Below are positions 25,030-30,692 of a DNA stretch of 64,000 nt, in pieces. The notes under the pieces are model-generated. The model was not told where the DNA came from and ran no database searches. It worked only from the letters and a program-made list of their open reading frames with translations. The stretch's first letter is position 1, and each line of letters begins with the position of its first letter. The position numbers and the translations under genes were made by a program. This stretch comes from Somniosus microcephalus (taxonomy: Eukaryota), in the NCBI GenBank assembly GCA_052327205.1, contig CM126215.1, positions 97,526,001-97,590,000 of the forward strand, read 5' to 3'.

Positions 25030-25508
25030 ATTAGTCCTCCTTGACTTTTCTGCATTCTTTGACACAGTAGATCACTTCACCCATTTCCAACTCCTTTTCT
25101 CCGTTGCTCAACTCAATGGGATTGCCCTCACTTGGTTCCACTTTTATCTATTCAATCATAGCCAGAGCATCTCCAGCAATGACTTCTATTCTCTACCCTG
25201 CACCATTACCTCTGGACTCCCCAAGGATCTATCCTTGGCTCCGTCCACTTCTTTATCTATCTTTATCTATATCTATCTTGTTGACATCATCCACAGTCAT
25301 GTGGTCAGCTTCCACATATATGTTGTCGACAGACAGTTCTATCTCTCCACCATCTCTCTCGATACATCCATTGCCTCCAAGTTGTCAGACTGCTTGTCCG
25401 ATATCCAGTCTTGGATACATAGATACATAGAAGATAGGAGCAGGAGTAGGCCATTCGGCCCTTCGTGCCTGCTCCGCCATTTAATGAGATCATGGCTGAT
25501 CCTTTAAT

Positions 25509-28376
25509 TCAGTATCCCGTCCCCGCCTTCTCTCCGTAACCCTTAACCCCTTTTGCCCGTAGAAATATATCTAATTCCCTCTTAAATATATTTAATGAGC
25601 TGGCGTACACTGCCCTCTGTGGCAATGAGTTCCACAGGTTCACCACTCTCTGAGTGAAGAAATTCCCCCTCATCTCTGTCCTAAATGGTTTAGCCCTTAT
25701 CCTTAAATTATGTCCTCTAGTTCTGTTCTCACCCGCCAAGGGAAACATTCCTTCTGCATCCAGTCTGTCTAGACCTGTCAGAATTTTATACACTTCTATG
25801 AGGTCCCCTCTCAATCTTCTAAACTCCAGTGTGTACATCCCTAAACTACATAGTCTCTCCTCATAGGTCATTCCCGCCATTCCTGGTATCAGCCTGGTGA
25901 ATCGCCGCTGCACCCCCTCCATGGCAAGAACATCCTTCCTCAGATGAGGCGACCAAAACTGTACACAGTACTCGAGGTGTGGTCTCACCAGTGCCCTGTA
26001 CAGCTGCAGCAAGGTATCCCTGTTCCTGTATTCTAACCCTTTTGCTATGAAGGCCAGCATACCGTTTGCCTTCTTGACCACCTGTTGCACCTGCATGCTC
26101 GCCTTCAGTGACTGGTGTACAAGAACACCCAGGTCTCTCTGTACTTCCCCCTCTCCCAATCTATTGCCATTTAAATAATAATTTGCCCTCCCGTTCCTGC
26201 ACCCAAGGTGGATAACTTCGCACTTGTCCACATTATAGTGCATCTGCCATTTATCCGCCCAATCGCCCAGTCTGTCCAAATCGCTCTGGAGCTTCCTGGT
26301 CTCTTCCTCTGAGCCCACCCCACCTCCTAGTTTAGTGTCGTCTGCAAATTTGGAAATGCTGCATCCGACTCCCTGATCCAGGTCATTAATGTAAATTGTG
26401 AACAGCTGGGGGCCCAGGACAGATCCCTGTGGTACCCCACTTGTTACTGCCTGCCATTCAGAAAATGAGCCGTTTATTCCAACTCTCTGTTTTCTATCTG
26501 ACAGCCAGTTCCCTATCCACGCCAAAACTTTCCCCTTTATCCCATGAGCCTCAATTTTCCATGCTAATCTTTTATGTGGGACCTTATCGAAGGCCTTTTG
26601 GAAGTCCAGGTACACCACATCTACTGGCTCTCCCCCATCTATTCTACCAGTTACTCCCTCAAAAAATTCCAATAGATTAGTCAAGCACGATTTACCCTTT
26701 GTAAATCCATGTTGACTCTGTCCTATCCTGTCCCCATTTGCTAAGTGCTCCGCTATTTCATCCTTAATGATGGACTCCAGCATTTTGCCCACAACTGATG
26801 TAAGGCTTACAGGTCTGTAATTACCTGCTTTTTCCCTACCCCCCTTTTTGAATAGTGGGGTAACGTTAGCTACCCTCCAATCCATCGGCACTGTTCCCGA
26901 GTCTAATGAATTCTGAAAAATCATCCTTAGTGCATCCGCTATCTCTAGGGCCACCTCCTTCAGTACCCTAGGATGCATGTTATCAGGCCCTGGGGATTTG
27001 TCCACCTTCAATCCCTTTAGCTTCCTTAACACCATATCCTTAGAGATATTGATTTGCGTCAGTTCCTCCTTTGCCAATGTCCCTATTTTTCCCGATATCC
27101 CAGGGAGGTTTTTTGTGTCTTCCTTCGTAAAGACTGACCCAAAGTATGCATTTAGTTGATCTGCCATTTCCTTATTTCCCATTATATATTCCCCCGTATC
27201 TGACTGCAATGGACCAACTTTGGTTTTCACCAGTCTTTTCCTTTTGATATATTTATAAAAGCTTTTGGAGTTAGTTTTTATATTTTCCGCCAGCTTGTTT
27301 TCGTAAGCTATTTTGCCCCTCTTGATCATGCCCTTTGCCCTCCTTTGCTCTATCTTAAACTGTTCCCAATCTTCCGCTCTGGCGCTTTTTTTGGCTATTT
27401 TATACGCCCTATCTTTGGATTTTATGCTGTCTCTAATTTCCCCTGTTATCCACGGTTGAGTCACCTTTTTAGATTTCCTTTTATGCCAGATTGGTATAAA
27501 CAATTTTTGCAATTTTGTCATTCTATCTTTAAATGTTTGCCATTGTTTATCTACCTCCAGTCCTCTCAGGAACGTTGTCCAATCAGACCTACTCAGTTCC
27601 CGTCTCATGGCATCATAATTCCCCTTGTTTAAATTCAGGACCTTAGTCTCTGAGTCAATTTCTTCGCTCTCCATTTCGAGTGAGAAATCGATCATGTTAT
27701 GATCGCTCTGACCCAAGGGTCCCCGTACAACAAGATTACTGATTAGTCCCTTCTCATTGCACAGTACCCAGTCCAATATAGCCTGTTCCCGAGTTGGTTC
27801 CTCGACATATTGATCCAGATAACCATCCCTTAAACACTCAAGGAATTCCTCCTCCTCATTATTTTTACTGATTAGGCTAGTCCAATCTATATGTAAGTTA
27901 AAGTCACCTATGATGACAGCTGTGCTCTTATTGCACGCTTCTCTAATTTCCCTCGTGATGCCCTCCCTAACCTCTATTTTACTATTTGGAGGCCTATATA
28001 CCACTCCTATTAATGTTTTTCGCCCCTCGCTATTTCTTAGCTCCACCCATATAGATTCTGTATTAACTGAGTTAATATCCTTCCTTTCAATTGCATTTAT
28101 CCCCTCTTTTACTAGCAATGCTACCCCTCCTCCCTTTCTTTTTTGTCGATCCTTCCTAAATACTGAATACCCCTGTATGTTAAGCTCCCAGCCCTGCTCA
28201 CCCTGCAACCATGTTTCCGTAATCCCAATTAGATCATAATTATTAACCTCTATTTCCACAGCTAATTCATCTACCTTGTTCCTGATGCTTCTCGCATTAA
28301 GGTATAAAACCCTCAGGCTTTTTTTATGCTCACATTTTTTATGAATTAGTTTGGCCCTTTGTTTTTTGTTCCTCAC
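25509..28376 (-). CDS. CR1 ORF2: APE endonuclease plus reverse transcriptase (frame open upstream to the ORF1 stop; no AUG start)
   Basis: 955 aa uninterrupted, with YLNARS, GITETW, GDFN, SDHN, YLDFQKAFD, GVPQGSVLGP and FADD. The annotated start is GTG. Confidence 0.95.
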   Translation of the reverse strand: MRNKKQRAKLIHKKCEHKKSLRVLYLNARSIRNKVDELAVEIEVNNYDLIGITETWLQGEQGWELNIQGYSVFRKDRQKRKGGGVALLVKEGINAIERKDINSVNTESIWVELRNSEGRKTLIGVVYRPPNSKIEVREGITREIREACNKSTAVIIGDFNLHIDWTSLISKNNEEEEFLECLRDGYLDQYVEEPTREQAILDWVLCNEKGLISNLVVRGPLGQSDHNMIDFSLEMESEEIDSETKVLNLNKGNYDAMRRELSRSDWTTFLRGLEVDKQWQTFKDRMTKLQKLFIPIWHKRKSKKVTQPWITGEIRDSIKSKDRAYKIAKKSARAEDWEQFKIEQRRAKGMIKRGKIAYENKLAENIKTNSKSFYKYIKRKRLVKTKVGPLQSDTGEYIMGNKEMADQLNAYFGSVFTKEDTKNLPGISGKIGTLAKEELTQINISKDMVLRKLKGLKVDKSPGPDNMHPRVLKEVALEIADALRMIFQNSLDSGTVPMDWRVANVTPLFKKGGREKAGNYRPVSLTSVVGKMLESIIKDEIAEHLANGDRIGQSQHGFTKGKSCLTNLLEFFEGVTGRIDGGEPVDVVYLDFQKAFDKVPHKRLAWKIEAHGIKGKVLAWIGNWLSDRKQRVGINGSFSEWQAVTSGVPQGSVLGPQLFTIYINDLDQGVGCSISKFADDTKLGGGVGSEEETRKLQSDLDRLGDWADKWQMHYNVDKCEVIHLGCRNGRANYYLNGNRLGEGEVQRDLGVLVHQSLKASMQVQQVVKKANGMLAFIAKGLEYRNRDTLLQLYRALVRPHLEYCVQFWSPHLRKDVLAMEGVQRRFTRLIPGMAGMTYEERLCSLGMYTLEFRRLRGDLIEVYKILTGLDRLDAEGMFPLAGENRTRGHNLRIRAKPFRTEMRGNFFTQRVVNLWNSLPQRAVYASSLNIFKRELDIFLRAKGVKGYGEKAGTGY

Positions 28377-28450
28377 CCTTTTACCATTTATTTCTGTCTG
28401 CCTTTCACTTTCCTCTATTTCACTACATAGGTTTCTAGCCCCCTGCCATA

Positions 28451-29398
28451 CTAGTTTAAATGCTCCCGAACTGCTTTATCAAAAATTACCCCGAGAACAT
28501 CAGTTCCATCTCTGCACAGGTGTAGACCGTCCCTTTTGTATAGGTCACACCTACCACAAAACTGGTTCCAATGCCTCAAAAATTTAAAACCCTCCCTCTT
28601 ACACCACTGCTCAAGCCACGTATTTAGCCTAACTATCCTGTTCTCTGTACTCTTACTAGCACGTGGCACTGGTAGTAATCCAGAGATTACTACCTTCGAG
28701 GTCCTACTTTTTAGCTTGGCTCCTAACTCCCTAAATTCTACTTGTAGGACCTCTTCCCTTTTTTTAGCTACGTCGTTGGTACCAACATGTATCACGACAA
28801 CTGGCTGTTCCCCCTCCCCCTCCAGAATGTTCTGCACCCGCGTCGAGACATCCTTGACCCTTGCACCAGGGAGGCAACATACCATCCTGGAGTCTCGGTC
28901 GCGACCACAGAAACCCCTATCTATTCCCCTTACAATCGAATCCCCTATTACTATAGCCCTGCCACTCTTTTTCCCTCCCTTCTTTGCAACAGAGCCAGTC
29001 ATGGTGCCATGAGCCTGGCTGCTGGTGCCTTCCCCCGATGCGTCACCCCCCCCGACAACAGTACCTAAGACGGTGAACCTGTTGCTAAGGGAGACAACCC
29101 CAGGGGATTTCTGCACTACCTTCCTGCCCTTGCTCTGCCTTTTGGTCACCCATGTACTGTCTACGCTGGCCTTAACCTGCGGTGTGACCAACTCACTAAA
29201 TGTGCTATCCACACCCCTCTCAGAATCGTGGATGCTCCAAAGTGAGTCCATCTGCAGCTCAAGGGCCGTCATGCGGTCCCACATGAGCTGCAGCTGGACA
29301 CACTTCCCGCACACATAGTCGTCAGGGACACAGGAAGCGTCCCTGATTTCCCACATGTTACAGGAGGAGCATGACACAGGTCCGAGCTCTACTGCCAT
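28451..29398 (-). CDS. CR1 ORF1: N-terminal zinc finger/coiled coil plus SGNH/GDSL esterase domain
   Basis: 315 aa with CSSC..CGKC, IVIGDSIVRG, IHVGTND and DGLHL. Confidence 0.93.
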   Translation of the reverse strand: MAVELGPVSCSSCNMWEIRDASCVPDDYVCGKCVQLQLMWDRMTALELQMDSLWSIHDSERGVDSTFSELVTPQVKASVDSTWVTKRQSKGRKVVQKSPGVVSLSNRFTVLGTVVGGGDASGEGTSSQAHGTMTGSVAKKGGKKSGRAIVIGDSIVRGIDRGFCGRDRDSRMVCCLPGARVKDVSTRVQNILEGEGEQPVVVIHVGTNDVAKKREEVLQVEFRELGAKLKSRTSKVVISGLLPVPRASKSTENRIVRLNTWLEQWCKREGFKFLRHWNQFCGRCDLYKRDGLHLCRDGTDVLGVIFDKAVREHLN

Positions 29399-30692
29399 GA
29401 CTTAACCCTTATATTACTTTTTAATTTTCTAGTTTTAGTTTATTTATCGACTTTTGTTTTCCCGAAGCTTACTTAGACCAATGTATACTGTACTCCTCTT
29501 ATTCCTTTTTAAACTAACCAAATCCCACTAGTTTTGGTTTTACTTTCTAGGAAGGTTTGAGGAAAGTACTTACCAGTTAGTCTTACCTCCCTGGTCTTTC
29601 GCTGACTTCCCGGTCTTGTGTCCCCTTGGTCCTACGCCGACTTCCCGCTCCTCCCGGTTCCTGCCCTGCCCGGATGAGCCGCAATTTTCTCCAGTTAAAT
29701 AGTGGGAAGACTAAAACCATTGTCTTAGGCCCCTGCCCCAAATTCTGTACTCACCACCGATTCTTCCCCCTCTCTGGACATTGTCTTAGGCTGAACCAGA
29801 CTAGTCACAATCTCGGCATCCTATGTGATCCTGAGCTGAGCTTTCAACCCTATATCCATCACAAAGGCTGCCTACATCCACATCCATAACATTGCCTGCA
29901 TCTACCTGTGTCACAGCTCATCTGCCACTGAAACGCTCTCCATGTGTTTGTCACCTCCAGACTGGACTATTCCAACATCCTCCTGGCTGGCTTTCCATTC
30001 TCTACCCTCCATAAACTTCAGCTCATTAAAACTCTGCTGCCTCTATCATATCCTGCAGCAAGTCCGGCTCACTCATCACTCTTGTTCTTGCTGACCTACA
30101 TTGGGTTCTGGTACCCAACACTTCAAATTTAAAATTCACACCCTCGTGTTTAAATCCCATCATGGCCTTTCCCCTCACCCTCTCTGTAACCCCCCTGCAG
30201 CCCTACAATTCCCACCGCCTCTGAACTCTTTGTTCTTCTAAATCTGGCCTTTTGTGCATCCACCCTCCTTTCGCCCCGCCAGTAAAATTCATCTACATTA
30301 ACAGAACTGTGTTAAAAATCTCTTAAACACAGCCTCAGGCAGTATTTGAAGAGACTGTTTTACAAATTCATCATCCAATTAAGATGAGAATCTGACCATT
30401 CTTTCTGCCTTCTGGTTAAGGAATGAAGCATCAGGAACAAACATTAAGACAAAGTCTGGGACACTTATGCCTCTCTGCAAAGTGAAATGCAGAGAATGGT
30501 CTTGAATGAATCATTGAGAAACCATGTACTGTACCATTAATACTATAAAAAGCCAGCTGTAACTAAGTGCGTCACATTGTCAGTTATGTATGAGTTAAGC
30601 ACTTGTAAACAACGTAGGCTTTTCCTCCATCTAGTAAATTGGATTGATTGGGCTCTCCACTGTTCCATGGTGCTTGGATGCTAGATAATGTA

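Follow-up and report, generated by a model that had tools for sequence, protein, structure and literature searches.

A conserved candidate −1 frameshift site between the two open reading frames of a Somniosus microcephalus CR1 retrotransposon

How long interspersed elements (LINEs) with two open reading frames (ORFs) translate ORF2 has been called an open question (PMC3894237). L1 and SART1 make bicistronic RNAs with low ORF2 output, and the mechanism described for them is termination followed by reinitiation (PMC5009743, PMC3894237, PMC10275272); for TRE5-A and TRE3-A of Dictyostelium, which are LINEs with an apurinic/apyrimidinic endonuclease (APE), ORF2 is said in a figure legend to need a −1 frameshift (PMC5911963). 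CR1-group elements are the dominant retrotransposons in most vertebrates (PMC13343379), and canonical vertebrate CR1s with an esterase ORF1 (ORF1 type IV) combine it with an ORF2 that encodes an APE and a reverse transcriptase (RT; PMC13343379, PMC4120745). Here we analyze an apparent member of this last group, located in a 64,000-nucleotide stretch of the Somniosus microcephalus genome (assembly GCA_052327205.1, contig CM126215.1, positions 97,526,001 to 97,590,000; this whole stretch is hereafter the window). A preliminary description of the window had proposed that a −1 programmed ribosomal frameshift joins the two ORFs of this element.

The excerpts of PMC5009743 treat L1 as a case of reinitiation and do not mention CR1, and those of PMC13343379, which contain none of the strings "translat", "ribosom" or "overlap", are, like those of PMC4120745, silent on how CR1 ORF2 is translated. 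No proposal of a CR1 frameshift was found in the literature searched by title, opening of the abstract and passages (including PMC4255032, PMC3905857, and PMC4316615); this body of text did not include the primary papers on CR1 (1997 and 2003), SART1 or L1, where an earlier remark is possible.

The ORF1–ORF2 junction

The features that define the junction, all on the minus strand, are as follows.

28454..28460, minus: slippery heptamer T TTA AAC in the X XXY YYZ register, identical in 15/15 lineage representatives
28451..28453, minus: ORF1 stop codon adjoining the heptamer, TAG here and TAA or TGA in relatives
28451..29398, minus: ORF1, 315 amino acids from the ATG at 29398, with an N-terminal Cys motif, an SGNH esterase and a Leu-Asn-stop end
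25509..28460, minus: ORF2, 983 codons in the −1 frame, comprising linker, APE endonuclease and RT
28476..28478, minus: TAA that closes the −1 frame five codons 5' of the heptamer, with no AUG between
28435..28449, minus: four-codon AUG mini-ORF in the +1 frame, its AUG present in only 2/9 representatives and not conserved
28305..28450, minus: purine-rich linker, roughly 50 codons, in which −1 is the sole open frame (no stops, against 5 in frame 0 and 8 in +1) and which has no in-frame AUG
28439..28443, minus: GGGGG tract 11–15 nucleotides (nt) past the heptamer, a candidate second cis element
27693..27695, minus: first in-frame ATG of ORF2, codon 256, behind the last endonuclease motif

ORF1 ends CAT TTA AAC TAG, with the heptamer in the register required for tandem slippage, as the preliminary description had read it. 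The −1 frame stays open from position 28460 through all of ORF2, and counting from the GTG at 28376 gives the 955 residues noted earlier. The reported lack of an AUG before or within the endonuclease also held, since the first Met (27695) directly follows the SDHN motif (codons 252–255). The AUG just after the ORF1 stop does open a four-codon +1 frame, but it is not the only one nearby, as had been stated: a second +1-frame AUG lies 25 nt past the start of the ORF1 stop and is followed immediately by a stop codon. In the comparison of CR1 junctions that the preliminary description had suggested, the heptamer, its register, the adjoining stop and the open −1 frame were kept across lineages and vertebrate classes.

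On this comparative evidence, we consider it likely that a −1 programmed ribosomal frameshift at U_UUA_AAC makes a CR1 ORF1–ORF2 fusion of approximately 1296 residues (315 + 981). This heptamer is among the most shift-prone for vertebrate ribosomes (PMC5009743). In such an event, tRNA-Leu and tRNA-Asn would slip in tandem and re-pair on UUU and AAA, and slow decoding of the adjoining stop, together with the fixed G5 tract positioned at the mRNA entry channel, may raise the shift rate. The main product would remain the 315-residue esterase ORF1 protein (ORF1p), with an ORF1–linker–ORF2 fusion as the minor product in which the linker would serve as a flexible spacer. A low shift rate would suffice because few molecules of the ORF2 protein (ORF2p) are needed per RNA.

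Conservation of the junction

Within its own genome (6.4 Gb), the ORF1 C-terminus of the window element returned more than 100,000 first-look candidates. The same junction was present in 30/30 top copies, chosen at 100% protein identity, and 29 of these were open over the 502 codons examined; the arrangement is therefore the design of a family rather than the decay of a single copy. A broader set of 150 loci was obtained by protein searches, from which a motif-anchored script extracted 142 junctions. These came from 140 sources out of 151, a total that counts the window; the remaining 11 were dropped because an anchor motif was unmatched, and rows were not de-duplicated. The heptamer was in register at 133 of the 142 junctions, and the endonuclease frame relative to ORF1 was −1 in 127, +1 in 8, and 0 in 7. 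Copies with the stop in place (135) fell into nine linker clusters at 80% identity, with 119 open in the −1 frame (31/31, 4/6, 8/11, 0/2, 1/2, 2/3, 11/14, 60/63, and 2/3 per cluster). All nine cluster representatives have the −1 frame shut one or five codons 5' of the heptamer, with no AUG between. Because the search-returned loci had been ranked on the ORF1 end, we also scanned 60 arbitrarily placed 10-kb stretches (600 kb) using queries without the last eight residues. The heptamer was present at six of the seven ORF1 ends found there, four at the predicted place and two displaced by upstream indels; the seventh end was decayed. Across these 600 kb, any XXXYYYZ heptamer preceded 283 of 54,985 stop codons (0.5%), and T TTA AAC itself preceded 11 (0.02%). 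In a further protein search, the 9/30 loci examined added no junction type to those already seen.

Homologues of ORF1 span rays, sharks, coelacanth, teleosts, frogs, turtles, and lizards, the closest named ones being from cartilaginous fishes (sharks and rays). Leu-Asn forms the C-terminus of 93/120 listed homologues and of 92/98 among those that reach the esterase end, and bird/reptile-type loci are among the 15 lineage representatives that carry the heptamer. A metagenome scan returned 38 loci, six with an ORF1 end: five were intact, with the heptamer followed by TAG, TGA, or TAA, and the sixth had a deletion and an altered stop. At one metagenome locus (L039), the −1 frame was open for 438 codons, into the endonuclease. 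No relative was found in the viral contigs searched, and a genome-contig collection yielded two fragments, neither with the junction. Among the consensus rows in the supplement of PMC13343379, whose sequence cells hold 400 letters, 18 of the 22 motif places shown were ORF1 ends as judged by eye, from 12 species ranging from elephant shark to crocodile. When rows were instead found via an upstream esterase motif, the heptamer was present in 8/9 CR1 rows, the ninth ending before the site (8/8 visible), and six synonymous variants of the heptamer gave no ORF1 end among the 21 of 42 places shown in this supplement. The ray–teleost split is dated to approximately 462 million years ago (PMC13343379).

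We compared the nucleotide and protein patterns at the ORF1 end in 13 representatives, i.e., the first open copy from each of eight clusters (the ninth, in which no copy is open, was omitted) and five metagenome loci. The last three ORF1 codons were NNT TTA AAC in all 13, followed by variable stops (TAA in nine, TAG in three, TGA in one). Elsewhere in the same ORFs codon choice at conserved Leu and Asn positions was free, with two to three or more codons each and TTA never fixed: the catalytic-loop Leu was encoded by CTG (nine), TTG (three), or CTA (one), two upstream Leu by CTA, CTC, or CTT, and two Asn by both AAT and AAC. The residue before Leu-Asn took 13 identities and was compatible with NNT in 90/93 homologues; at the two positions before it, incompatible residues occurred in 41/93 and 42/93 (about 52/93 compatible). 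Moreover, the chain of the solved L2-type ZfL2-1 esterase (4C1B) stops two positions before the Leu-Asn, an end that may not be native. As judged from these patterns, the constraint at the ORF1 end is one that acts on the RNA, because NNT TTA AAC is fixed while the stop type varies, other Leu and Asn codons are free, and the solved esterase lacks the Leu-Asn.

Three homologues end Glu-Leu-Asn (P0005, P0105, and P0113); two of them look related and may form a lineage with a variant site. The row AldAff_Crack-2 of the PMC13343379 supplement bears a Crack label, yet has the CR1-type esterase end and the heptamer; vertebrate Crack elements are reported to have no ORF1 (PMC13343379). Four records under bacterial or flatworm names (P0009, P0146, L070, and P0089) hold vertebrate-type CR1 proteins, likely through host contamination. 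Two distinct 3' untranslated region (UTR) types occur among CR1 lineages of the S. microcephalus genome that have the junction in common (L161–L173 and L213–L223 versus the window element and L204–L211).

Linker, G tract, transcripts, and setting

Measured from the anchor, linkers were 188, 212, 227, 233, 275, 278, or 284 nt long, all of a single frame class. The nine representatives, which were selected for an open −1 frame, contained no stops in that frame, 3–9 in frame 0, and 2–13 in +1; the chance of an equally open shuffled linker was P = 0.0015–0.066 in eight of them and 0.29 in the short bird one. Variants shared among linker copies comprised 1 synonymous, 28 non-synonymous, and 0 stop-generating changes, compared with four and three stop changes in the other two frames. 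No in-frame AUG occurs in the linkers of 4/9 representatives, and those of the other five are at unrelated positions. One group with 227-nt linkers (L106, L131, L133, L174, and L188) showed a linker ratio of non-synonymous to synonymous change (pN/pS) of 2.2 with low synonymous change (0.043, compared to 0.09–0.11 in flanking coding parts), which could reflect RNA-level constraint or diversifying selection, the numbers being small.

The tract of five G was nearly invariant: G occupied positions +11 to +15 in 15, 15, 15, 14, and 14 of the 15 representatives, compared to 6–10/15 at neighbouring positions, and the tract was present in 121/134 copies. It looks like a second RNA signal because +11 and +14 are wobble positions of the −1 frame and frame 0 is non-coding there; part of this pattern is accounted for by a Gly codon, the element being GGG-rich, and the tract may have a role in stimulating the shift. 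As the preliminary description had anticipated, no strong fold follows the heptamer (z = +0.33 against shuffles). A local hairpin was accordingly rejected as stimulator, there being no fold above shuffles, and a two-tier G-quadruplex was predicted in 4/13 representatives and not in the window family. Pairing of the junction with the 5' region was strong in some lineages (−37 and −35 kcal/mol), at differing places, and weak in the window family; in L211, L214, and L216, the G-rich stretch after the heptamer is predicted to pair with the 5' UTR or the start of ORF1 at −33 to −37 kcal/mol. Taken together, the sequence comparisons show the candidate −1 site to be a real and conserved feature of the CR1 family, and the G5 tract fixed 11–15 nt past the heptamer is the part of it that appears to be new here.

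Two raw RNA-seq runs from a species holding the CR1 family were scanned, covering 24% and 31% of their reads. The junction region (28200–28750) was covered by 513 and 860 reads, with depths of approximately 76 and 97 at the heptamer. Among these reads, no joint, indel, or heptamer substitution reached a 2% share, and no pile-up of read starts was seen at the junction. The reads do not demonstrate expression of the element's own mRNA, because they run in both directions and derive from many copies.

Several genomic copies carry a single frame of 1000–1300 codons because additional bases lengthen the run of G that precedes the heptamer (13 + 3 hand-picked loci). One-frame copies of about 1300 codons include L161, L162, L220, and L221 besides other hand-picked loci and occur in several lineage backgrounds. 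A transposing lineage with fused ORFs was rejected as their source, since they sit on several different linker backgrounds; the pattern is what repeated slips in a homopolymer, or errors of assembly, would give. A search for longer proteins returned no natural full-length ORF1–ORF2 family, and one ray gene model reads through the junction.

The element as a whole is bounded as follows.

25415..29669, minus: full-length, intact young CR1 LINE, ends set by blastn against eight sibling loci
25415..25508, minus: short 3' UTR with a tandem microsatellite-like repeat at its end

The eight siblings are 99.4–99.9% identical to it. The ORF1 esterase matches Pfam PF13472 (SGNH/GDSL; E = 7e-11) and the solved relative 4C1B (E = 2.4e-44), and Pfam assigns Exo_endo_phos and RVT_1 to ORF2, which has its endonuclease motifs at codons 53, 80, 185, and 252. 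This combination of APE endonuclease, RT, and short 3' UTR with a terminal repeat, with no long terminal repeat (LTR), together with the ORF1 homologues and the CR1-labelled rows that share the junction, identifies the window element as a probable vertebrate CR1 with an esterase ORF1. A four-base direct repeat lies on both sides of the element, and an older, decayed RT-like element surrounds it (25031–25414 and 29670–30200; RT-like translation at 25031–25507), which may be read as an L2.

Competing explanations and known systems

Several observations weigh against a frameshift at this site. Most natural −1 frameshift sites have a stimulatory structure, in the canonical type 5–9 nt past the heptamer; no local fold after the heptamer exceeded shuffles in 13 sequences (z −0.46 to +1.84), no pseudoknot-like fold was seen, a dedicated pseudoknot program not having been run, and pairing between the junction and the 3' end did not exceed shuffles in the 19 elements for which the end of ORF2 could be located (z −1.67 to +0.8), the best helix being broken in one lineage without compensation. 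Three of the 93 Leu-Asn homologues end Glu-Leu-Asn, which is incompatible with the first T of the heptamer, and one linker cluster had no open copy among its two members. The search-returned loci were ranked by queries that contained the Leu-Asn end, and CR1 lineages share ancestry, such that all counts are of non-independent events. An in-frame AUG lies 5' of the endonuclease in 5/9 representatives, and a CTG or TTG lies six codons before the first endonuclease Asn in 6/9. Finally, linker residues are not under purifying selection (pN/pS is 2.2 compared with 0.14 in the endonuclease, from five copies with non-independent pairs), a pattern that fits a spacer needing only to stay open and is no proof of translation.

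Each alternative accounts for part of this evidence. Termination–reinitiation, the mechanism described for L1 and SART1, would have the ribosome terminate at the end of ORF1, move back and begin again, now in the −1 frame, on an adjacent non-AUG codon to give a separate ORF2p, with the motif and the G tract as reinitiation signals. It likewise requires an open linker and agrees with the conserved position of the ORF1 stop, and the start of ORF2 in L1 is codon-independent. We nevertheless find it unlikely: a SART1-type overlap, in which the stop shares bases with an ORF2-frame AUG (as in UAAUG), occurs in 0/9 representatives, no AUG within 40 nt is conserved in place or frame, and the exact in-register X XXY YYZ, whose first T is invariant although the codon holding it specifies many different residues, is left unexplained. 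An independent start within the linker, using a lineage-specific AUG, GUG, or CUG reached by leaky scanning, an internal ribosome entry site (IRES), or a shorter RNA, would draw on the in-frame AUG and CTG/TTG codons described above, on the GTG at 28376, and on the approximately neutral evolution of linker residues, and an IRES has been put forward as a possibility for ORF2 of LINEs in general (PMC3894237). The Leu-Asn would then be kept for a reason of protein function, which the solved esterase without these positions does not support; neither the synonymous fixation, the frame held open 5' of such starts nor the indels in multiples of three would be explained, and there is no pile-up of read starts. 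We regard this account as very unlikely. The joining of the frames in the RNA, either through a splice onto the AG within the stop or through polymerase slippage on the T and A runs, seems the least probable of all and close to dismissible. In TAG lineages the stop resembles a 3' splice acceptor, and the reads, which derive from many copies, could mask an infrequent genuine transcript of the element; however, the stop is TAA in 9/13 representatives and TGA in 1/13, and neither joints nor indels appeared at the 2% share in the 513 and 860 reads. The fusion by frameshifting proposed in the preliminary description is supported by evidence of a comparative kind, with neither splicing nor transcript indels seen in RNA reads.

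If a −1 shift does operate here, CR1 ORF2p would be a fusion that carries the dimerisation and esterase domains of ORF1, made at a fixed ratio to ORF1p. It would give a reason why CR1 ORF2 often has no start codon, call for correction of ORF2 annotations, inform how CR1 retrotransposition assays are designed, and add to the recoding catalogue a frameshift without evident RNA structure; the conserved site also offers a precise and cheap test of CR1 ORF2 translation. A bolder extension, which we offer tentatively and think doubtful, is that a structure-free −1 shift has operated in the esterase-type CR1s of all jawed vertebrates for more than 400 million years, with the adjoining stop and G5 read by a trans-acting RNA-binding protein and the RT built into ORF1p dimers as a Gag-Pol-like fusion.

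Compared with known systems, the window CR1 lacks two features of L1 and SART1, i.e., an ORF2 with its own AUG (in SART1 within a UAAUG overlap) and, on the proposed mechanism, a separate ORF2p. TRE5-A and TRE3-A belong to another clade and host, and their ORF1 is not known to be an esterase. In the protein-stimulated frameshifting of arteriviruses and cardioviruses, a short motif located some 10 nt past the slip site replaces a strong structure. That motif is either rich in C or forms a small stem-loop, and a viral protein binds it; the candidate element in CR1 is instead a G5 tract, for which no trans-activator is known. Like retroviral gag-pol and coronavirus ORF1a-1b, the CR1 junction has an in-register X XXY YYZ heptamer where the first ORF ends and the second ORF in the −1 frame, and the heptamer of infectious bronchitis virus (IBV) is identical to that of CR1 (PMC5009743). 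It differs from these systems in that no pseudoknot or hairpin was found, that G5 stands at +11 to +15 instead, and that the host element is a non-LTR retrotransposon whose ORF1 encodes an esterase.

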